The notes beneath the pieces were generated by a model, which was not told the origin of the DNA, searched no databases, and worked only from the letters and a program-made list of their open reading frames with translations. DNA of 64,000 nt from a virus (lineage: Duplodnaviria; Caudoviricetes), in IMG/VR virus record IMGVR_UViG_3300045015_000053; one strand, written 5' to 3'. Below are positions 6,702 through 63,441 of this stretch, piece after piece. Each line of letters opens with the position of its first letter. Positions within the stretch are counted from its first letter, which is position 1. The translations under genes were made by a program, and so were the position numbers.

Positions 6702-7079
6702 GGGGATGAAAAGGTTTCGATACGGTACGGAGGTTGTGAGTTGCACGCCGTGGTTGAGCGAAGGGCCACGTTAAAAATCGTTCAAACTCCATCTGGCAAA
6801 ACCAGTGGTCTGCGTCTGGTGGGCGACCGCCCGGCGCTCCGTCTCGCGGCTTGACCGCGACGGGTCCGCGAGGGACTTCAGATAACTCGCGGGTCCGCAA
6901 CACATCTGGATCGGTCATCAGGGTTGCTCCCTGACTGATGGCCGGAACTACCAGGGAAGCTTGCTCGTGACCTTGATGTCGGTAAGAGGTTACGGGGACT
7001 CCAGGCCCGACTAAGCGTGTGAACGAAATTTACAGTTGAAGTAGCGTACACGCGGGTTCGACTCCCGCCATCTCCACTA
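6702..7079 (+). ncRNA. ssrA: tmRNA, tag (A)GKTSGLRLVGDRPALRLAA
   Basis: 5' GGGGATGAAAAGGTTTCGA; 3' T-arm GCGGGTTCGACTCCCGC and CATCTCC-A with G3:U wobble; tag frame 6795-6854 ends LAA-TGA. Confidence 0.93.
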
Positions 7080-46467: not shown

Positions 46468-46767
46468 TTAGAACGTCAGTTCCGAGGCCGCGAACGACAA
46501 GAGCATGCCGTTGTCGAGTGCGACGAGCCAGTTCGGAACCGAAACTCTGGCCTCCGACACTTTCTTGACTTTCTCTTTGCCGTACTGGTTTTTCTTGTCG
46601 AGCTTCACTTTGAACTCGTGGATGTACGGATAGGTGTATGGCCCGGCCAACACCGTACCCATCAAGTCCTGAAGTGCGCCCCCAACGGAATTGACTTTGA
46701 CCCGCTTGCCCTCGTCGTTTCGTCCCTGGACGAGTGTGGCATCATCGGACAGTTTGGGATGGAGCAT
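46468..46767 (-). CDS. hypothetical protein
   Basis: ORF converging on the terminator. Confidence 0.6.
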   Translation of the reverse strand: MLHPKLSDDATLVQGRNDEGKRVKVNSVGGALQDLMGTVLAGPYTYPYIHEFKVKLDKKNQYGKEKVKKVSEARVSVPNWLVALDNGMLLSFAASELTF

Positions 46768-46921
46768 AGCAATTAAGTAGTAACCCGGCTCAGAATTTGC
46801 TCCTGCGGCATACGATAAGAGATCGGCAAAAATCTGGAATTAGGGTTTACAAAGTCCGGGGGTTTGTCGATACTGAAATTGTGACGGGTGGGACGCGACG
46901 AGCAAATAAAACAACGACAAG

Positions 46922-46950
46922 TTGACAAACTGCTCCGAACGGCCTACACT
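46922..46950 (+). promoter_or_regulatory. sigma70-type promoter of the long non-coding unit
   Basis: TTGACA-17 nt-TACACT. Confidence 0.8.
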
Positions 46951-47135
46951 GACTTGACAAGACACCGGAGACACGCCGTGCCGGGTAGGATCGAATGAAT
47001 GGGCGACGTTCGGTCGCCGGCACGGTGTGCTTATGGCGGTCGGTTTGAAACGGCAAGCACGCAAAAACGGACAACGTTCAACTAAGATTGCGTTCTCCAA
47101 ACTTGTGCGACCCGTATGCCTTCCGACCGCCTCCT

Positions 47136-47230
47136 GGGGGAGTAGCTCAGAGGCCAGAGCGCAATCTAGGGAGCCGATTAAAAACCGGCAAACGTGATTG
47201 AGGTCGTTGGTTCGACTCCAACCTCCCCCA
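47136..47230 (+). ncRNA. tRNA-like RNA with 29-nt insert in place of the anticodon loop
   Basis: GGGGGAG/CTCCCCC-A acceptor, GCTC/GAGC D stem, CAATC/GATTG stem, GTTGG-TTCGACT-CCAAC T arm. Confidence 0.75.
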
Positions 47231-47635
47231 CTCGGCAGGATGTTAGTAGCGGACTACATTACACCAACACCAATGTGTCTCTACGATTTTTTGCCTGCCA
47301 CAACATGCCCCTGGTGGGGCGATCTGCCGGAATGGGCGACGGCAGACGTAACGCCAGGGGCTTCTTAAATCCAGAACGGGTCAGCGAAAAAGCACCAACG
47401 GCATGTAAGAGTGCCTACCCGTTCTGGACTCGTCTTCCGCCTTATCAGCGGAAGTGGTGGAGGCGACGGTGTCACCAACATCGCTGCCCTTCGGAGAGTA
47501 AACTCCGAGCGACTCCGGTCGCGAAACAAATCTGGTGGATCGCTGGCTACTGCCGGCCCCCGGAGTACAGTCTTCGGACGGGCTTGACCCGGAAACAAAA
47601 CTGATGTGGAGTTCCTGTAAAAAGGGGCTTCATAT

Positions 47636-47707
47636 GGGGAGCAGGTGTCAAGGGACACGTCCTGGCTAATCACCGGGAAGAGTGGGGTTCGATTCCCCGG
47701 CTCCCCT
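47636..47707 (+). tRNA. atypical tRNA, anticodon AAT (Ile-like) with C37 and 4-nt D loop
   Basis: GGGGAGC/GCTCCCC; GTGTC-AAGG-GACAC; CCTGG-CTAATCA-CCGGG; TTCGATT T loop. Confidence 0.55.
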
Positions 47708-47921
47708 CTGGCGATGGGGATATACCCCTCGCCTCTCACTCGCAACATTTTTGACCCGGTCGGGGTGCGATCCCCGTGGGTATGCAGTAGCGGGTGTACA
47801 TTCATGAAAAGCGGAGGGACGTAATGTCCGAACACTACCAGAGGGGACCGCCCCTGAGAATGTACTACCCCTATATGGCACCCATGTCCGCATACCGCAT
47901 CTGATCGCGCGGGCCGGGTGA

Positions 47922-47959
47922 CAAAAACCCCAGTGAAACCCACTGGGGTTTTTGTTTTT
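47922..47959 (+). terminator. intrinsic terminator
   Basis: CAAAAACCCCAGTG-aaacc-CACTGGGGTTTTTG then TTTTT. Confidence 0.88.
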
Positions 47960-47974
47960 CAAGATAGATACAGC

Positions 47975-48769
47975 ATGCACACCGTCTTCGCCGAGTGGCT
48001 GTTCGAGCGGACCACCGATCCCGAACGCCGCGCCAGAATCGACAAGGCTTTCAACACCCTGAAGGCGTTCATGGAAAAGGTCGTCAAAGAAGACACCTTC
48101 TCCGACTACTTCCAGACGGACGGCGACTTCTACTACTTCTTTCCCTGCGTCAAGCACCTGCCCGAAGTCTTCAAAGGGAACATGGAGTTCATCGCTCAGA
48201 AGTTCGACAAGGAAGCTCAACAAGACACGAACCCTCTGATGGGCCAGCAGATCGACTACAGCGGCGGGTTCAACTTCCTCGACCACGATCCGCCGCTGTT
48301 CACCTTCGTCTTCCAGACCGACCGCAAGACGTTCATCCAGAACTTTCCGAAGTATTGTGCCAACTGGTTGTCACAGGTTCGGCAGACCTTCAATCACGAG
48401 TACAACCACTACCTCGACTGGCTCGACTCGGACGGGAAGGCGATCCCCGCCAAGAACATCTGGAACGCCGGCGCGGGCGAGGCCCAACGGAAGAAATACT
48501 TCAACTCGACGCACGAGGTCAACTCGTTCTTCACCGACATGGTGATGGACGACTTCGAGTTCGTGCGGGGCGGGATGTTCTCGAAGATGCCGCCGGCCAA
48601 GAAACTCGCGGTGTTCGAGAAGATGTACGGCCGGGACGCTCGCGAGTACGTCGCCAAGTTCTGGACCCGCAAACAGGGCTTCTCCGAGTTCTCCACGGAA
48701 ACCCGCAAGCGGCTGTCGAAACGACTGTACGCCGCCTACCAGCAACTGAAGGCCGAAATCTCGGCTTGA
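47975..48769 (+). CDS. zincin-like HExxH protein with CTS-like N-terminus
   Basis: TAGATA 47965-47970 plus 4 nt; MHTVFAEWLFER; FNHEYNH...YFNSTHEVNSF. Confidence 0.7.
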   Translation: MHTVFAEWLFERTTDPERRARIDKAFNTLKAFMEKVVKEDTFSDYFQTDGDFYYFFPCVKHLPEVFKGNMEFIAQKFDKEAQQDTNPLMGQQIDYSGGFNFLDHDPPLFTFVFQTDRKTFIQNFPKYCANWLSQVRQTFNHEYNHYLDWLDSDGKAIPAKNIWNAGAGEAQRKKYFNSTHEVNSFFTDMVMDDFEFVRGGMFSKMPPAKKLAVFEKMYGRDAREYVAKFWTRKQGFSEFSTETRKRLSKRLYAAYQQLKAEISA

Positions 48770-55898: not shown

Positions 55899-57334
55899 TT
55901 CAGCCCCTTCACGCGGATCACCTTGTTGTCGTAGACCTCGCGCAACTTGCCCTCTTTCAGCAGCCGGTATGATTCTTTCCAGTGCGAGCCGACGAACGGG
56001 TGGTGGTTGCCGGCTTCAATAGCCTCGGTCCCGATCTTGATCTTCTTGGCGTACCGCTCGTAGCCCCTGATCGGGTAGTGGTGCAACCACATTTCTTTCA
56101 GAAGGCCGATGGCCCCGGCGTAGTCGATGATGTTGTCCTGCCCCATCCCGATCTTGATGCCCTTGTAGGGGCGGTAGGCAAACCGGCCGCTGCACCACTT
56201 CCCGAACTTGCGGTCGTGGCGGTGGTAGATGGGCATCTGCTTGGTGCTGAACGGCTCCTCGATAAGATCGGTCGGCGGATGCTCGTAGAGGCAATCAGCC
56301 AGCACCGCTCCGAAGTTGGGCTGCACCATTCTCAGGTTTTCCATACCGCACCAGAACTCGTCGCCGTCGATGGGAACGACCCATGACGCCCCCCGTTCCA
56401 ACGCCATCTCCCCCATTCGGCTCTGCCACAGGTCTTGACGGTACTCGTTGGACGGTTCGTCAACGATGTGGACGTTCTTGAAAGTGGCCGCGATCTCACG
56501 GGTGCGGTCGGTCGAGGCGTTATCCATTAGGATCACTTCGTCAACGCCGTTGGCGAAGTTGTGTTCGAGGCATTCGGCGAGGATGTCCTCTTCGTTACGC
56601 ACCAGCATGGTGGCGACGATTTTCTGTCGTTGGTGTTCGAGCTTGATCATGCCGGGTGCCTCGCCGTTCGCGTTCTTGTAGTGCAAAGTGGGCAACTTCT
56701 CTTTGTTCAGGCCGTGTGCCTTGAGTTGGTGATCGATCAGGTGTTCGTGGCACCACGTCGCCGACTCCTTCAGCAAGTAGGTGTCCATCAGGTCGGGGAG
56801 CGTCATCATGACTTCCATCGTGTTCCGATCCGCGATGAACAGGTTGTCCGTCAACTCCATGAACACGCTGTTCTGGGGGAAGTAGACCGTTCCGGGCTTC
56901 GGCGAGAAGTCGATGGGGAGGCCGGTGAAGACGTAATCGGGGCGGAATCTAATGACGGTGTCGTACCTGAAGCCGTTCCGCTGTTCGTAGTCCTTTAGGA
57001 GCATCCACGCCCGCTTCAGGATGTGGAACATGCAGAAGCTGTCGTGACCCTGTCGGTTCTTGTGGCAACTGGCGTCGAACTTCCGGTACTTCTCGAAGTA
57101 GCGGTTCTTCAGCACCGCCGATTCGAGTACCGCGTTGAAGTTCGAGATCTCCACCGTCTTCGCGTTGAAGATGGCCTTCGTCTTCTCCGCGTCGATCAGG
57201 GGTGCGTCGGGCGTGCATTCCTCGCGGTCCCATGTGGCGAGAAATATGTCCGCGTGGAACTTGTTTTTCATCTGCCTGACGAACTCTTCGCTGTTGTAGC
57301 GGAGGTGGCCGGAAAGGAATATCGCTTTACGCAT
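55895..57334 (-). CDS. two-domain glycosyltransferase-like protein (C-terminal GT2-like)
   Basis: KAIFLSGHLR...YDTVIRFRPD; VRNEEDIL..CLEH...G....I.MDNASTD, W...IDGDEFW. Confidence 0.78.
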   Translation of the reverse strand: MRKAIFLSGHLRYNSEEFVRQMKNKFHADIFLATWDREECTPDAPLIDAEKTKAIFNAKTVEISNFNAVLESAVLKNRYFEKYRKFDASCHKNRQGHDSFCMFHILKRAWMLLKDYEQRNGFRYDTVIRFRPDYVFTGLPIDFSPKPGTVYFPQNSVFMELTDNLFIADRNTMEVMMTLPDLMDTYLLKESATWCHEHLIDHQLKAHGLNKEKLPTLHYKNANGEAPGMIKLEHQRQKIVATMLVRNEEDILAECLEHNFANGVDEVILMDNASTDRTREIAATFKNVHIVDEPSNEYRQDLWQSRMGEMALERGASWVVPIDGDEFWCGMENLRMVQPNFGAVLADCLYEHPPTDLIEEPFSTKQMPIYHRHDRKFGKWCSGRFAYRPYKGIKIGMGQDNIIDYAGAIGLLKEMWLHHYPIRGYERYAKKIKIGTEAIEAGNHHPFVGSHWKESYRLLKEGKLREVYDNKVIRVKGLK

Positions 57335-57988: not shown

Positions 57989-58059
57989 TGCGGAGTGGAG
58001 GAGAGGTTCCTTGTGAGGCTCATAACCTCAAGACGCTGGTTCGAGTCCAGCCTCCGTAA
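57989..58059 (+). tRNA. tRNA-Met(CAT), initiator-like, copy 1
   Basis: TGAGG-CTCATAA-CCTCA; GCTGG-TTCGAGT-CCAGC; U1-A72. Confidence 0.85.
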
Positions 58060-58065
58060 CTAGAC

Positions 58066-58136
58066 TGCGGGTTGGAGGAGAGGTTCCTTGTGAGGCTCAT
58101 AACCTCAAGACACTGGTTCGAGTCCAGTACCCGCGA
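58066..58136 (+). tRNA. tRNA-Met(CAT), initiator-like, copy 2
   Basis: D and anticodon arms identical to copy 1; U1:G72. Confidence 0.85.
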
Positions 58137-58138
58137 CT

Positions 58139-58505
58139 CAGGCAGACGGAAAGAATTTTGGAAATCTGCCAAAAGGCGTGAACCACTTACGGGTGAAAGC
58201 GTCTATACTACACGGGCCGACGATGTCCATCCAAAAGGGATGGCTCACTCGACCCAAACCCAATGAAGCCGTAGGGGTGGATTTGGGGTCCAAATAATGC
58301 GAGTTCAATCTCGCGGAAGTCACTGCCATGTTCGTCGTAAACCACAAGCCAGGGAAACAGATGCAAGCGCAGGCAGTGCGCGTTTGCACTGGCATTACCG
58401 TCAACGGACCCGCCGCCGCATGGTGCGAACGTCCGCAAGGTAATGATAAGACCAAGACTCCCTGACTTCTCATCAGAGATCAGTCGGGGATTAACTCCCC
58501 CGGCG
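58139..58505 (+). ncRNA. about 365-nt structured non-coding RNA (family unassigned)
   Basis: Helices GGCAGA/TCTGCC, CCATCC/GGATGG, GCGAG-TTCAAT-CTCGC, ACTGCC/GGCAGT, CATTACC/GGTAATG, TCCCTGACT/AGTCGGGGA; terminator follows. Confidence 0.62.
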
Positions 58506-58514
58506 ATAGCACAC

Positions 58515-58560
58515 AAGAACCCTCGCCGGGGTCAAAGCTCTGGCGAGGGTTCTTTCGTTT
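58515..58560 (+). terminator. intrinsic terminator
   Basis: AAGAACCCTCGCC...GGCGAGGGTTCTT then TCGTTT. Confidence 0.8.
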
Positions 58561-58601
58561 GGGAGACTGAGATGACGTATAAACGCAGGGGCTTTTAATC
58601 T

Positions 58602-58675
58602 GGCCCCGAAAGCTTTAGCTAGATGAGCAACAGCCTTTTAAGCTGTGGAAGAGGGTGCGATTCCCTACGGGGCTA
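58602..58675 (+). tRNA. tRNA-Lys(TTT), non-canonical (A8, T loop TGCGATT)
   Basis: ACAGC-CTTTTAA-GCTGT; GGCCCCG/CGGGGCT. Confidence 0.8.
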
Positions 58676-58681
58676 CTGAAT

Positions 58682-58754
58682 GGCCCGCTTGCTACAACGG
58701 AGAAGCGCCGAGCTTTTAACTCGGTCACGGTCGGTTCGATTCCGACGCGGGCTA
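58682..58754 (+). tRNA. tRNA-Lys(TTT)
   Basis: CCGAG-CTTTTAA-CTCGG; TTCGATT T loop. Confidence 0.9.
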
Positions 58755-58771
58755 CTCCAAATGACGTGTAA

Positions 58772-58859
58772 TTGTGTTGTCGTTGTCACCGCGAGTTGCA
58801 TGCCAACTTGCTTGACAAAATCACACTGCAAAAGACTTACGAAGCTGAATGGGAAAGAC
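58772..58859 (+). pseudogene. 3' remnant of an HNH endonuclease
   Basis: After TAA 58769 the frame reads LCCRCHRELHANLL, like the CANCHRKIHHGLI/CSNCHRKLH ends of the two intact HNH genes. Confidence 0.55.
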
Positions 58860-58933
58860 GGCTGTGTAGCATAATTGGTAGTGCGACGGTTTCATAAGCC
58901 GTGTCAGCGTCGGTTCGACTCCGACCACAGCTA
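58860..58933 (+). tRNA. tRNA-Met(CAT), elongator-like (Ile2 not excluded)
   Basis: GGCTGTG/CACAGCT; ACGGT-TTCATAA-GCCGT. Confidence 0.85.
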
Positions 58934-58989
58934 CTAACGCCTGGATTCATCTCCGGGCCGTTCTTTGACAAGTAGGTAAGCCATAATAC

Positions 58990-59030
58990 GGTGACTCACA
59001 CGTCAATTACCAGTTGACGTGTGAGTCACC
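58990..59030. other. 17-bp perfect inverted repeat
   Basis: GGTGACTCACACGTCAA-ttaccag-TTGACGTGTGAGTCACC. Confidence 0.85.
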
Positions 59031-59036
59031 TGAAAC

Positions 59037-59108
59037 GGCCCGTTCGACTTCTGGCGAGGTCAGCAGTTTTTCAAACTGTTCAGGCGAGATCGAAACTCGC
59101 ACGGGTCA
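59037..59108 (+). tRNA. tRNA-Glu(TTC), non-canonical (T loop ATCGAAA)
   Basis: GGCCCGT/ACGGGTC; GCAGT-TTTTCAA-ACTGT; GCGAG/CTCGC. Confidence 0.75.
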
Positions 59109-59174
59109 CTGCACGACATTGCGGATGATAGAACCTGTCAAAAGGTTTAGCGCCTTCTGTAATGCGTGCTACAT

Positions 59175-59246
59175 GGCCCATTCGACTTCTAGTGAGGTCA
59201 CCTGTTTCTCGAACAGGTCAGGTCGGAGCGTAACCGACATGGGTCA
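59175..59246 (+). tRNA. tRNA-Glu(CTC), non-canonical (T loop AGCGTAA, no D-loop GG)
   Basis: GGCCCAT/ATGGGTC; CCTGT-TTCTCGA-ACAGG; GTCGG/CCGAC. Confidence 0.72.
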
Positions 59247-59265
59247 CTGACGGCTTCCAAAGAAT

Positions 59266-59336
59266 GCGGGATTGATGAAGTGGTATCGTGTCACGCTTCC
59301 AACGTGAACTCGCCGGTTCGATTCCGGCATCCCGTA
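59266..59336 (+). tRNA. tRNA-Gly(TCC)
   Basis: TCACG-CTTCCAA-CGTGA; A73. Confidence 0.9.
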
Positions 59337-59393
59337 CTTGCAAGGTTCCATTTTTGTCTATAGTGTGTGGGGCAACTCAAACACGAGGCAATC

Positions 59394-59690
59394 ATGAAAC
59401 GGCAAAAGATCAAGCTCGAAGGCGGTCCACTGGATGGCGCGGAGATGGAGGTCGATGAACACATCTTCAAGTCCATCTTGGCTCAAGGTGGGCTGACGCT
59501 GGAGTGGCCCTTCGAGGAAGAAAAGTTCGATCCGATGAAGTTTACAGTCAGGGCGAACAAACCCGTGACGTATCAGGATCGAGGAATGTCGTCAATCGAT
59601 GATCAACCGATTTACGACTACGAATCGGCGTACCCTCTGTGGTACGAAAACGACAAGGACCAGATCATGGAAATGATCAAAGGTAATTAA
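59394..59690 (+). CDS. hypothetical protein inside the tRNA array
   Basis: GAGG RBS; IKLEGGPLDG motif. Confidence 0.65.
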   Translation: MKRQKIKLEGGPLDGAEMEVDEHIFKSILAQGGLTLEWPFEEEKFDPMKFTVRANKPVTYQDRGMSSIDDQPIYDYESAYPLWYENDKDQIMEMIKGN

Positions 59691-59699
59691 GTTGATCTT

Positions 59700-59832
59700 G
59701 TTGTGGTAGCTCAGTAGTAGAGCAGCGGACATGGCGAAAGCCTGTTGTCTCGCAATTTTTGCCCGCAAGGGATGCCTGATGGGATTACATTTTAATCCGC
59801 CGGTCGCAGGGTGCGAATCCTTGCCCACAACA
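59700..59832 (+). tRNA. tRNA-Lys(TTT) with 59-nt intron-like insert (59731-59789) between positions 32 and 33
   Basis: GTTGTGG/CCACAAC-A; GCGGA/TCCGC stem; removing 59731-59789 gives loop C-TTTTAA. Confidence 0.75.
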
Positions 59833-59838
59833 CTAGAC

Positions 59839-59913
59839 TGCCGAAGATTCAGTGCTGGTACTGTAGTTCGCCTTTGAAGCGAAATGTCTCAGGTTCGATT
59901 CCTGATTCGGCAA
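59839..59913 (+). tRNA. tRNA-Gln(TTG), non-canonical D region
   Basis: TTCGC-CTTTGAA-GCGAA; G8 and extra linker nt around CAGT/ACTG. Confidence 0.8.
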
Positions 59914-59918
59914 CTTAC

Positions 59919-59992
59919 CAGGGCGTGGGAAAGCTTGGAAATCCGCTTGCGTCGGAAGCAAGAGATCGGCGGTTCAAATCCGCCCGCCCTGA
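59919..59992 (+). tRNA. tRNA-Pro(CGG), copy 1
   Basis: CAGGGCG/CGCCCTG; CTTGC-GTCGGAA-GCAAG. Confidence 0.85.
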
Positions 59993-59995
59993 CTT

Positions 59996-60066
59996 CGGGG
60001 ATTGGTATAGTGGAAGCACACATGCTTCGGGAGCATGTAGCGCAGGTTCGATTCCTGTATCCCCGA
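59996..60066 (+). tRNA. tRNA-Pro(CGG), copy 2
   Basis: CGGGGAT/ATCCCCG; CATGC-TTCGGGA-GCATG. Confidence 0.88.
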
Positions 60067-60116
60067 CTGAATAGGAAGGAATAGGAAAGCCTTCCGAAAT
60101 GATCGAAGTAAAACAT

Positions 60117-60191
60117 TGTCGAGGATTGAGTGCTGGTACTCTTGTCTGCCTCTGAAGCAGAATGTCTCAGGTTCGATTCCTGACTCGACAA
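60117..60191 (+). tRNA. tRNA-Gln(CTG), non-canonical D region
   Basis: TCTGC-CTCTGAA-GCAGA; variable and T arm identical to the 59839 copy. Confidence 0.8.
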
Positions 60192-60244
60192 CTAGATTGG
60201 CTCTGAGATTTGTGTTTTTCAGAGCCGACTTGCTAAGATAGTGT

Positions 60245-60664
60245 ATGAAGAAATGCACTATTTGTCGGCAAGATAAGGCTCTTGCCGACTTCAACAAAAA
60301 GCCAAGTACAAAAGACGGATACCAGACAAAGTGTCGCAAGTGCAGTAAGCGTCTTGCAAAGGCGCGGTACTACGACAATCGCGACACTGAAATGAAAAGA
60401 ATCAAGGACCGTCAAGAAGATCTTGCTAATCGGTTTTATGAATTCAAGCGAACTTTGCGGTGCGAGTTTTGTCCTGAGACAACAGCTTGCTGTTTGGACT
60501 TCCATCACCGCGACCCGAACTCGAAGGAATTCAACATCGCATTCGCTTGTCGCCAGGGTTACTCTTGGGACAAGCTCATGGAGGAAGTGAATAAGTGTGT
60601 GGTGGCCTGTGCGAACTGTCACAGGAAGATACATCACGGTTTGATTGATTGCCCGCTCGTATAA
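60245..60664 (+). mobile_element. HNH endonuclease, stop codon inside the next tRNA
   Basis: CTIC...KDGYQTKCRKC; CEFC...LDFHH...KCVVACANCHRKIH. Confidence 0.88.
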
Positions 60665-60720
60665 CGGTAGTACAACTGACTCTGACTCAGTTAGTGAAGG
60701 TTCGACTCCTTCGTGGGCAT
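60650..60720 (+). tRNA. tRNA-Gln(CTG)
   Basis: ACTGA-CTCTGAC-TCAGT. Confidence 0.88.
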
Positions 60721-60725
60721 CTGAC

Positions 60726-60796
60726 TGAGGAATCATCTAATGGTAGGATGCAAGGCTTTGACCCTTGTCGTGGCGGTTCGAGTCCGTCTTCCTCAA
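60726..60796 (+). tRNA. tRNA-Gln(TTG)
   Basis: CAAGG-CTTTGAC-CCTTG. Confidence 0.9.
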
Positions 60797-60798
60797 CT

Positions 60799-60856
60799 TC
60801 CGACATGTTAGGAGAGAACACGCCAAGTGCGGCAGGTTCGAGGTCTGCTGTCGGAT
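60799..60856 (+). ncRNA. 58-nt tRNA-like RNA without a normal anticodon arm
   Basis: TCCGACA/TGTCGGA; TGTT/AACA; CGC-CAAGT-GCG; GCAGG-TTCGAGG-TCTGC. Confidence 0.6.
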
Positions 60857-60858
60857 AC

Positions 60859-60929
60859 GCGGGATTCGTTTAGTGGCAAGATCCAACTTTCCCAAAGTTG
60901 AGTCGCCGGTTCGATTCCGGCATCCCGTA
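60859..60929 (+). tRNA. tRNA-Gly(CCC)
   Basis: CAACT-TTCCCAA-AGTTG; A73. Confidence 0.88.
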
Positions 60930-60933
60930 CTGT

Positions 60934-61006
60934 GGGCCATTGGCATGTCTGGCGATTGCAGCGGACTGTTAACCCGCCGAGGTTGGTTCGATTCCAACAT
61001 GGCCCT
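60934..61006 (+). tRNA. tRNA-Asn(GTT)
   Basis: GCGGA-CTGTTAA-CCCGC. Confidence 0.88.
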
Positions 61007-61026
61007 CTCGCTCCAAGAAAGGCAAC

Positions 61027-61281
61027 ATGAGCAAGACAACGTATTACCGGCAGTGCCGACTTCAACGCGGCAATTGCCACCAAGTGAGTTGGATTCCCGA
61101 ACCGTACTGCGTCAAGGACAAAGTCCTGAAGCTCAAGAACAGTGACGGTGTTTGGGAGAACGGATGGGTGGTGAAGGGAGCCGGAACCAACCGGATCACC
61201 GACGTGCCGCACGCCGAAGGTTTGATTCGCGCACACCGGAAAGCTACTGGTGATTCGCTGCCGAAAGGTCCGAACAATTGA
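61027..61281 (+). CDS. hypothetical protein inside the tRNA array
   Basis: AAGG RBS; YRQC.L...VSWIP. Confidence 0.65.
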   Translation: MSKTTYYRQCRLQRGNCHQVSWIPEPYCVKDKVLKLKNSDGVWENGWVVKGAGTNRITDVPHAEGLIRAHRKATGDSLPKGPNN

Positions 61282-61284
61282 AAC

Positions 61285-61342
61285 AGGGGCAGGGTTTAGC
61301 CACCCTGATCGGTCGGGAGTAGCTACCCCGCCCGTGGCCCCT
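61285..61342 (+). ncRNA. two-arm tRNA-like element
   Basis: GGGGC/GCCCC closing helix; AGGGT-6 nt-ACCCT; GGtcGGG-AGTAGCTA-CCCcgCC. Confidence 0.4.
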
Positions 61343-61346
61343 ACAC

Positions 61347-61417
61347 GCGGGATTCGTTAAGTGGTAAGACGCATGCTTGCCAAGCATGAGACGCCGGTTC
61401 GATTCCGGCATCCCGCA
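61347..61417 (+). tRNA. tRNA-Gly(GCC)
   Basis: CATGC-TTGCCAA-GCATG; A73. Confidence 0.9.
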
Positions 61418-61544
61418 CTCCGATTTTGAAGGCTCTGGTTCCCCTTGTGGGTGGTAAAAAGATCGCGCATAATCATCACGTTGCTGCGATTGGGCTGTAG
61501 AAATCGAAACCCCCAATGTCTGCGTAGCAGACAGGGAGTAAGTG

Positions 61545-62720
<1,176 letters not shown>

Positions 62721-62783
62721 AGATCTAGTAGTTAAACAGGGGGAGAACTGGCCCCCACCCCGTCGCGAGACGGGGCTACTGAT

Positions 62784-62854
62784 GGCCCTATAGTCTAGTG
62801 GCAGGACGTAACCCTCTCAAGGTTAAGATTGGAGTTCGATTCTCCATAGGGTCA
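62784..62854 (+). tRNA. tRNA-Glu(CTC)
   Basis: TAACC-CTCTCAA-GGTTA; TTCGATT T loop. Confidence 0.9.
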
Positions 62855-62903
62855 CAGGCTCGACTACGTCCGACGCTCAGTTTTTCGGACGTTATAATTT
62901 GTC

Positions 62904-63329
62904 ATGGAGAAGACATGTTACAAGTGTAAACAATTGAAGCTTGCGGACGAGTTCTCGAAAGATACTCGGAGTAAAGATGGGTTGTGTGCGGCTTGTAGAG
63001 CTTGCCGAAGCGAGCTTAAAAAGCAGTATTACAACCGCGAACATGATGGCTTGAGGATCAAGCAGCTTGAGAAGCGTCGGAAGCTTCAGGATTGGGTTAG
63101 CACATTCAAGAAAGAGTGTAGTGTTTGCGGAGAGGATCATCCGGCTTGTTTGGATTTTCATCATGATGGCGAGAAGGAAGCAGGTATTGCCAACATGATC
63201 AATCGCAACAATATGACCGACGAAATGAGATCGAAGGTTTTGGCTGAGATCGCCAAATGCAAAGTCTTGTGTTCAAACTGTCACAGGAAGTTGCACTGGA
63301 AAGAAAGAAGAGAAGGCCCATTCGTCTAG
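62904..63329 (+). mobile_element. HNH endonuclease (paralog of 60245), stop codon inside the next tRNA
   Basis: CYKC...KDGLCAACRAC; CSVCGEDHPACLDFHH...KCKVLCSNCHRKLH; TATAAT plus 5 nt before ATG. Confidence 0.88.
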
Positions 63330-63385
63330 TGGTAGGACATCAGATTTTCACTCTGACAACCGGAGTTCAATTCTCCGATGGGTCA
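63315..63385 (+). tRNA. tRNA-Glu(TTC)
   Basis: TCAGA-TTTTCAC-TCTGA; TTCAATT T loop. Confidence 0.9.
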
Positions 63386-63441
63386 CTCAAAAGAAAGAAA
63401 CGAATCGGTATATACCCCACAGGCCGAACACAAGGGGTTTC

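Follow-up and report, generated by a model that had tools for sequence, protein, structure and literature searches.

A huge freshwater lake phage encodes a unit without coding signal that is bracketed by two tandem sigma-70-like promoters and an intrinsic terminator and contains two tRNA mimics. By covariance-model search, this conserved and structured non-coding unit lies outside all catalogued RNA families. We propose that it would yield a non-coding transcript organized like a tRNA operon, which RNase P and RNase Z would cut at the mimics into several stable RNAs; we put the probability of this explanation at roughly 0.45. A sequence-only reading of the same DNA had placed here a non-coding unit running from promoter to terminator with tRNA-like domains inside, a description that is confirmed below and to which conservation in relatives can now be added.

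The window, which is the whole stretch of 64,000 nucleotides that was analyzed, covers positions 9123-73122 of a 188-kb IMG/VR virus record (37% complete by CheckV), in which the RNA unit occupies 56044-57081. Because an exact copy of the product of P0002, the gene upstream of the unit, is present on a contig of 475,914 bp, the source is a huge phage with a genome of at least 476 kb. The runs containing the sequence are lake-water metagenomes; no RNA data set was listed among them, which speaks neither for nor against expression. A 586-kb relative (contig JAWVGZ010000010.1) is colinear with the phage genome. The record includes a tmRNA, a DnaE-type polymerase and 53 ARAGORN tRNA calls, both mimics among them, and its tRNA island begins at window position 57989, about 10 kb downstream of the RNA unit. 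A check for RNA-handling genes revealed a Ro60/Rsr ortholog 76 kb downstream of the RNA, rsr (G000:C1:132725-134518 in the record), on the same strand as the unit; it is supported by vWA_Ro60 (52.6 bits) and TROVE (31.6 bits) matches, by the Rsr structure 2nvo (5e-18) and by thousands of homologs. Genes for RtcB and a CCA-adding enzyme were not found in the 188-kb fragment searched, which represents 37% of the genome, and PHROGs and Pfam searches of the genes flanking the unit yielded no function.

Homolog searches recovered the conserved unit in two further phage sequences. The product of P0001, the gene downstream of the unit, is closely matched (83% identity) by a single homolog, encoded on a 28-kb Logan contig (L004) that keeps the order of minus-strand gene, gap and P0001 homolog (L004:8436-10000). 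The L004 gap is alignable to the window from the promoters through the terminator, and an extra ORF encoding a 125-aa membrane protein lies upstream of the promoters. Contigs of run X10 supply a third, partial variant that is about 90-95% identical, so that the comparison set consists of two full sequences (window and L004) and one partial one. By blastn, no homolog was found in GenBank phages, and exact or gapped patterns retrieved no further homolog from IMG/VR, JGI metagenomes or GTDB genomes. Searches for related loci with P0001, P0002 and the DnaE-like protein returned nothing, and the 90% clusters of ten neighboring proteins led to no new contig reaching the RNA. Distant homologs of P0001 exist, at loci with no comparable upstream gap.

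Both ends of the unit are well defined (Table 1). The two promoters have consensus-like hexamers at 17-nt spacing, as expected for sigma-70-like sites, and at the other end a U tract follows a G+C-rich hairpin at 47925-47951 (near 47935-47952 in the terminator scan); promoters and terminator are conserved in L004, and the promoters are conserved in X10 as well. The downstream promoter, P2, and the U-tailed terminator had both been claimed by the sequence-only reading, and both are real. The hexamers of P2 are identical in L004, where the spacer is different, and X10 departs from the window only at spacer position 46939 and upstream of the site. At P1, L004 reads TTTACA...GATATT, and the changes in X10 are restricted to the spacer and the flanks. 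In the terminator stem, an A-U pair of the window is replaced by G-C in L004, a compensatory change.

The earlier claim that no credible ORF lies between these signals also stands. Indeed, third-position G+C content shows no frame bias at 46800-47999, unlike in both flanking regions, and the alignment with L004 over the gap contains many 1-nt indels and a 38-nt insertion, so that frames are broken. In addition, the gene caller reported zero genes in L004:8436-10000. The unit is therefore without coding signal.

Table 1. Positions of the RNA unit's parts and of the neighboring genes in the window, with identity to L004
Feature	Position	Strand	Description	Identity to L004
P0002	46468-46767	-	gene upstream of the gap	
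ORF-free gap	46768-47974		between P0002 and P0001	
P1	46846-46874	+	upstream promoter-like site, TTTACA-17-GATACT (promoter scan)	
P2	46922-46950	+	promoter, TTGACA-17-TACACT, 10/12 matches (promoter scan); predicted start near 46957	
5' domain	46957-47135	+	fast-evolving; long hairpin 46972-47029 with apical loop AAUGGGCGA	46% (ungapped columns), about neutral
5' domain, second part	47034-47130	+	closed multibranch domain, ends 4 nt before mimic 1	
Mimic 1	47136-47232	+	canonical acceptor, D and T arms; 5-nt variable loop; N73 47230, C-U 47231-47232	79%
Mimic 1, extended arm	47162-47200	+	5-bp stem, purine-rich internal loop, distal stem, A-rich end loop	
D3	47234-47299	+	13-15-bp hairpin (11-nt CACCA-rich loop) inside a GGCAGG/CCUGCC outer helix	87% (D3-D4)
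D4	47307-47361	+	long hairpin; loop GAAUGGGCGA repeats the apical loop of the 5' hairpin	87% (D3-D4)
D5	47366-47432	+	optional, variable hairpin	90% (ungapped columns)
Central block, D6-D9	47434-47635	+	most conserved part	89%
D6	in central block		7-bp stem, 7-nt loop CUUAUCA	
D7	in central block		hairpin	
D8	in central block		about 100 nt, three-way, UCCG/UUCG and UACU loops	
D9	in central block		13-bp hairpin abutting mimic 2	
Mimic 2	47636-47709	+	cloverleaf (ARAGORN); N73 47707, C-U 47708-47709	84%
3' domain	47710-47920	+	hairpin D10; D11 with nested hairpin 47761-47776; D12; D13	80%
D12	47796-47865	+	three-way junction	
Terminator	47921-47958	+	intrinsic; 11-16-bp G+C-rich stem, then U tract (terminator scan)	
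P0001	47975-48769	+	gene downstream; unit ends only about 20 nt before its start	

Identity to L004 is 79-90% from mimic 1 through the 3' domain, compared with 49% and 68% at the fourfold-degenerate sites of P0001 and P0002, respectively; positions 47136-47920 are therefore under purifying selection. This selection is about as strong as that on codon positions 1 and 2 of the flanking genes, at which identity is 83-90%. The stretch upstream of mimic 1 drifts at a roughly neutral rate.

The core of the unit (47136-47958) has a minimum free energy of -378.9 kcal/mol, against -305.4 ± 8.5 kcal/mol for dinucleotide shuffles (z = -8.7), and its opposite strand folds 24 kcal/mol more weakly. We count about 30 local helices grouped in about 14 domains, where at least eight helical domains had been claimed. 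For the covariation test, the structure was predicted from the window alone and the L004 substitutions were permuted among paired positions (2000 permutations). Double-compensatory pairs number 9 in L004, compared with 2.6 ± 1.4 expected (permutation maximum, 8), and only 24 pairs are broken, compared with 42 ± 2.5 expected (permutation minimum, 33). RNAalifold on the two sequences returned 260 pairs, 22 of them compensatory. Structural covariation is thus present, and structure conservation is shown together with strong purifying selection. The substitutions follow the pattern typical of structured RNA, with a UCCG tetraloop in the window swapped for UUCG in L004 and stems rebuilt under altered loops. 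All helices with covariation support are local, spanning at most 100 nt, and candidates for long-range helices are dominated by chance, two sequences being compared. Inside the genome, the RNA has no paralogs beyond T-arm similarity.

Two odd cloverleaves had been noticed in the unit from the start, and both are real: RF00005 and ARAGORN both recognize the one at 47136-47230, and ARAGORN also the one at 47636-47707. Mimic 1 scores 52.7 bits in the window and 52.0 bits in L004 (threshold, 29). Its sequence shows the tRNA features U8, A14, G15-C48, G18-G19, G26 and an AGGUC variable loop, and compensatory changes affect the acceptor stem (two), the anticodon stem (one) and the T stem (one). The position of the 7-nt anticodon loop of a tRNA is taken by 29 nt in the window and by 31 nt in L004. 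These continue the anticodon stem into an extended arm of 15-17 layers, the conserved internal loop of which places GGA opposite RAR (AAA in the window, GAG in L004) and the distal stem of which covaries. ARAGORN alternatively proposes a tRNA-Pro(GGG) with a 22-nt intron, i(37,22). We reject this intron because its removal from the window, or removal of the corresponding 24 nt from L004, leaves A33 or G33, respectively, in place of U33, because no bulge-helix-bulge is present and because the arm covaries. Decoding through the end loop of the arm is likewise rejected, since 15-17 layers would not fit tRNA geometry.

Mimic 2 is built from a 7-bp acceptor stem, a 5-bp D stem with a 4-nt loop, a 6-bp anticodon stem and a canonical T arm. 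It falls below the RF00005 threshold; among Rfam models, tRNA-Sec scores best, with 25.7 bits where 47 are required, and the mascRNA model reaches only 17.9 bits (E = 1.7). It folds as a cloverleaf in both phages, with an acceptor stem that has largely been rebuilt by compensatory changes. Its anticodon loop is CUAAUCA in the window and CCAAAUA in L004, so that neither U33 nor an anticodon is kept. Given the long arm of mimic 1 and the changed loop of mimic 2, neither mimic is a conserved decoder, and neither has a close paralog among the phage tRNAs (at most 68% identity).

Compensatory changes extend to the domains around the mimics. Even in the fast-evolving 5' domain, the window and L004 share a two-part layout (z = -4.0 and -3.2), and the G>A change at 46975 in X10 turns a G-U pair into A-U. 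The outer helix of D3 has a compensatory G-C to A-U change, and D4 in L004 has a compensatory U-A to C-G change as well as one inserted base pair. The loop motif that D4 shares with the 5' hairpin occurs at 47000 and 47333. D5 is precisely absent from an X10 contig, which skips 47366-47432, and in L004 it holds a 38-nt extra hairpin within an outer helix that shows a compensatory U-A to G-C change. Further compensatory changes are found in D7, D8 and D9 of the central block and, in the 3' domain, in D11 (two) and D13 (one), with loops that vary in L004 and X10. The hairpin nested in D11, CGGGG-TGCGAT-CCCCG, had been described as T-loop-like. Its stem is upheld by a compensatory change of GG/CC to AA/UU. 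Its loop reads UGCGAU in the window and CAAGCG in L004, and since it is not conserved it is not a T-loop.

How the unit might be used is best approached through the 3' ends of the mimics. The phage tRNAs called by ARAGORN in the record have no encoded CCA, and N73 is followed by C-U in 49 of the 53 calls, both mimics included, against a background of 5% for the CT dinucleotide. The N73-C-U sequence is retained on both mimics in both phages despite a change of the discriminator, from A to U in mimic 1 and from U to A in mimic 2. After N73, the next tRNA follows within 3-6 nt in the real arrays, and the next helix within 2-4 nt here. We favor cleavage at the mimics mainly because both carry the phage's own tRNA 3'-end signature, and also because every helix supported by covariation is local.

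In the explanation that we favor, host RNA polymerase would initiate at P1, at P2 or at both of these sigma-70-type sites and stop at the terminator, producing a predicted transcript of about 1.0-1.08 kb that would fold into a string of about 14 local domains. The mimics would present the cues for end processing, all of which they retain, namely, the stack of a 7-bp acceptor and a 5-bp T stem, a canonical T loop, the GG of the D loop and N73-C-U. RNase P would then cut on the 5' side of the mimics, ahead of 47136 and 47636, and cleavage after N73, at 47230 and 47707, would fall to RNase Z or an equivalent enzyme. Five products are predicted: a 5' leader, about 180 nt long and poorly conserved; mimic 1, as a 95-nt RNA carrying its specialized long arm; an RNA of about 400 nt with high conservation; mimic 2, of 72 nt; and a 3' RNA of about 250 nt that the terminator hairpin might protect. 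Transcription, cleavage at the mimics and any function are all matters that we infer. Given a genome that combines a tmRNA and a Ro60 ortholog with over 50 tRNA calls, our guess is that the targets of the products lie in the translation or RNA-surveillance machinery, and we would likewise guess that the mimics bind tRNA-recognizing proteins without decoding.

Several side observations touch on cleavage. The unit is modular, D5 being deleted in X10 and expanded in L004, and the sequence preceding the first cut predicted for RNase P drifts about neutrally, both of which speak for cutting at the mimics. On the other side, mimic 2 is flanked by a 13-bp hairpin that abuts it 5' and by a hairpin 2 nt past N73, and these helices may hinder RNase P and RNase Z. 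Moreover, plain punctuation has no need for the conserved special arm of mimic 1.

The transcript might alternatively remain whole, as one large ornate RNA of about 0.8-1 kb that folds as a unit, perhaps multimerizing, and serves as a functional analogue of GOLLD and ROOL; the mimics would then be covalently held docking modules and not cleavage sites. We consider this possible, yet doubtful. The RNA is indeed phage encoded, was sampled from lakes and has a large tRNA island about 10 kb away. Its 5' part is variable and its 3' part conserved, an arrangement that counts against cleavage insofar as it is also the layout of GOLLD, where conservation is lower in the 5' region than in the conserved 3' region and the linker sometimes holds tRNAs (bioRxiv 10.1101/2024.12.08.627333). 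Conserved A-rich loops cap covarying stems, and large folded RNAs typically make tertiary contacts through A-rich end loops carried on variable stems (Kretsch et al., bioRxiv 10.1101/2024.12.08.627333). The presence of the loop motif GAAUGGGCGA in two hairpins and the helices that directly abut both mimics fit an intact RNA as well. Against it, the supported helices are all local, with none long-range, a whole domain is dispensable in X10, and both mimics retain the tRNA 3' processing signature.

Family membership was assessed by running cmscan with the complete Rfam 15 set of 4227 models across 46700-48100 at E <= 10, and only tRNA-type and chance-level matches were obtained. GOLLD, ROOL, YrlA, RNase P, 6S, introns and ribozymes all gave no match in this region, and the lack of a GOLLD or ROOL match at E <= 10 weighs further against the intact RNA. 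The GOLLD profile of Kretsch et al. was itself taken from Rfam (bioRxiv 10.1101/2024.12.08.627333). A search of the whole 188-kb record with RF03087 (ROOL) at E <= 10 returned no match, and as its controls likewise returned none, it is cmscan that decides. The divergent GOLLD-like RNA offered by the sequence-only reading therefore fails as a matter of family membership. Of its two other options, a new large ncRNA class may still hold, and a polycistron cut at the cloverleaves is the one that we favor.

The Ro60 ortholog in the same genome raises another interpretation, compatible with processing at the mimics, in which mimic 1 would be a rearranged Y RNA and the partner of the phage's own Ro60. 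The excised 95-nt RNA would bind Ro60 through its arm, leaving a tRNA-like head exposed. A partner RNA resembling a tRNA is expected in jumbo phages that encode TROVE proteins (PMC7824862), and no canonical Y RNA was found beside rsr or elsewhere in the 188 kb. YrlA is also a tRNA mimic, with an Ro stem leaving from the anticodon-stem position: its anticodon stem continues into the Ro60-binding stem, and its acceptor stem is closed by a loop (PMC4201824). The open acceptor and closed long arm of mimic 1 would thus amount to a circular permutation of YrlA. The YrlA of Mycobacterium smegmatis is an RNase P substrate and has CCA added to it (Chen et al. 2014, PMC4201824).

In YrlA, the strand that runs into the V loop and T arm bears the motif GNCGAAN0-1G (PMC4201824). 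The corresponding strand of mimic 1, GGCAAACG, matches it at 5 of the 6 specified positions and that of L004, GGCGAGCU, at 4 of the 6 with similar spacing, for a motif that is very common in this genome. The match is thus partial and differs between the two phages. Reported YrlA genes sit within 4 kb of rsr (PMC4201824), whereas here rsr is 76 kb away. The YrlA model (RF02553) has no match in the region, and its best score in the genome, 17.3 bits against a threshold of 69, falls in a tRNA array. Because of the distance to rsr, the failed YrlA model and the weak motif, we hold the Ro60 role for mimic 1 to be a minority reading and distinctly unlikely.

It is very improbable that the unit consists of decaying tRNA genes and spacers without a function of their own, or that it is a long cis-acting leader for P0001. 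The mimics do lack a close tRNA paralog, as old pseudogenes might, and the unit does end close to the start of P0001. However, conservation far above the synonymous-site level and compensatory changes throughout argue against both. A leader is further opposed by the strong, conserved terminator that separates the unit from P0001 and by the distant P0001 homologs, which have no such gap upstream.

A broader view, which we regard as rather unlikely, is that the unit belongs to a class of large phage RNAs not described before, its tRNA-shaped modules being embedded in a conserved fold of about 0.8 kb and mimic 1 acting as a permuted, Y-RNA-type handle for Ro60. Such an RNA, intact or processed, might couple the phage's tRNA, tmRNA and Ro60 toolkit to the host's translation or RNA-decay machinery, which we judge rather unlikely to the same degree. 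Huge phages bring extensive translation gear of their own, and very little is known about the roles of their many non-coding stretches. Here, about 1 kb of DNA is kept under selection purely for RNA structure, and the two tRNA look-alikes within it have retained features of tRNA processing and lost decoding. Should processing occur at the mimics, as we favor, the unit would be an example from a bacterial virus of tRNA-shaped punctuation that makes other stable RNAs. An RNA that stays intact would be a new member of a very short list of large ornate RNAs, and a Ro60 partner would represent a new Y RNA topology.

Comparison with known systems places the unit between several of them. With GOLLD and ROOL, it shares a phage origin, a length of roughly 0.6-0.9 kb, heavy structure and proximity to a tRNA island, and with many GOLLD RNAs it also shares an origin in lake samples. 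Unlike GOLLD and ROOL, it has no covariance-model match and no supported pseudoknot or long-range closure, and unlike in GOLLD RNAs that carry tRNAs, the embedded elements here are non-decoding mimics. Mimic 1 is similar to YrlA (RF02553) in that both mimic tRNA, have canonical D and T arms and extend a long helix from where the anticodon stem would be, but its topology is the opposite (open acceptor, closed arm) and rsr is not adjacent.

With respect to processing, the T4 species 1 and 2 RNAs, of about 120-140 nt, are stable small RNAs that are cotranscribed with the T4 tRNA gene cluster and processed from it, among real tRNAs. The products proposed here would resemble them in being non-coding, in sharing a transcript with tRNA-shaped elements and in their proposed release by tRNA processing enzymes. 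They would differ in coming from a unit that has promoters and a terminator of its own and contains no decoding tRNA, and in including RNAs with proposed sizes of about 400 and 250 nt. In MALAT1-mascRNA and in mitochondrial polycistronic transcripts, non-decoding tRNA-shaped elements set the sites for RNase P and RNase Z, whose cuts free the adjoining RNAs. The cleavage logic that we propose would be alike, with the difference that those systems are eukaryotic or organellar and the one described here belongs to a phage.

Besides the structured non-coding RNA that lies between P0002 and P0001, the window carries a full-length tmRNA gene (Table). A second ORF-free stretch directly follows two tRNA-Met genes, and a matching layout is found in L004, the 28-kb related phage contig with a second full copy of the RNA. 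Since the ORF-free stretch after two tRNA-Met genes is present in both, it is suggested that this lineage of phages repeatedly uses structured RNAs co-transcribed with tRNAs.

Features of the window, the phage record and the related sequences
Feature	Position	Strand	Match or remark
tmRNA gene, full-length	window 6702-7079		RF00023, 113 bits
ORF-free stretch after two tRNA-Met genes	window 58139-58505
Matching ORF-free stretch	L004:19878-20364
Octamer GATAGATA	window 47963-47970, 22993, 72213; window-equivalent 95089	+
Extra ORF, 125 aa	L004:8490-8867		predicted membrane protein
Loop GAAUGGGCGAC, 5' domain of the RNA	window 46997-47007
Loop GAAUGGGCGAC, D4 hairpin	window 47330-47340
Interrupted tRNA gene, 59-nt insert	window 59700-59832		ARAGORN intron mode
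Homolog in the 586-kb relative	L029:9671-9804
Interrupted tRNA gene, 36-nt insert	window-equivalent 64871-64998 (beyond window)		ARAGORN intron mode
Interrupted tRNA gene, 624-nt insert	window-equivalent 89740-90437 (beyond window)		ARAGORN intron mode
Ro60/Rsr ortholog, 597 aa	G000:C1:132725-134518 = L012:6726-8519; window-equivalent about 123603-125396 (outside window)	+	vWA_Ro60, TROVE, 2nvo

Across the whole record, CCA is not encoded at the tRNA 3' ends, and C-U follows the discriminator in 49 of the 53 tRNA calls, counting both tRNA mimics of the RNA (e.g., window 57989-63386). The tRNAs of L004 likewise have C-U after the discriminator and no encoded CCA; those near Ro60 in a 586-kb relative are without the discriminator-C-U pattern, which looks like a lineage-specific 3'-processing signal. 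Three tRNA genes are interrupted by inserts in the anticodon loop, and without its 59-nt insert the first of them regains a canonical loop, C-U-UUU-A-A; the homolog of this gene in the 586-kb relative occupies a different location.

Within the RNA, two hairpins share the identical loop GAAUGGGCGAC, which may constitute a protein-binding or loop-docking motif; L004 retains UUGGGCGAC in D4 only, not in the 5' domain. Upstream of the RNA promoters, L004 has an extra ORF after its P0002 homolog, and X10, a partial third variant, carries about 376 inserted nt there, between window positions 46819 and 46828; neither the ORF nor the insert is found in the window. Downstream, the octamer GATAGATA falls between the RNA terminator and P0001 and is kept in L004. 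It stands 3 to 6 nt 5' of start codons at four plus-strand sites (chance expectation, about 1.7 occurrences per strand) and may serve as a signal for transcription start or translation that is specific to the phage.

The 586-kb relative (L028/L029; NCBI GCA_040384205.1, contig JAWVGZ010000010.1, 586,525 bp) is colinear with this phage, with a DNA identity of 65-82% in matched blocks, and should carry the RNA in full length near position 100 kb, which would be the third such copy. Near its Ro60 gene are RlaP, a release-factor-like gene, ClpS, and NAMPT. Directly 3' of the phage's own Ro60/Rsr gene lies a terminator, and no Y RNA was recognized beside the gene. Homologs of the encoded protein number in the thousands, some on other huge contigs at 76% identity, and it matches vWA_Ro60 (52.6 bits), TROVE (31.6 bits), and the Rsr of D. 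radiodurans (2nvo, 5e-18).
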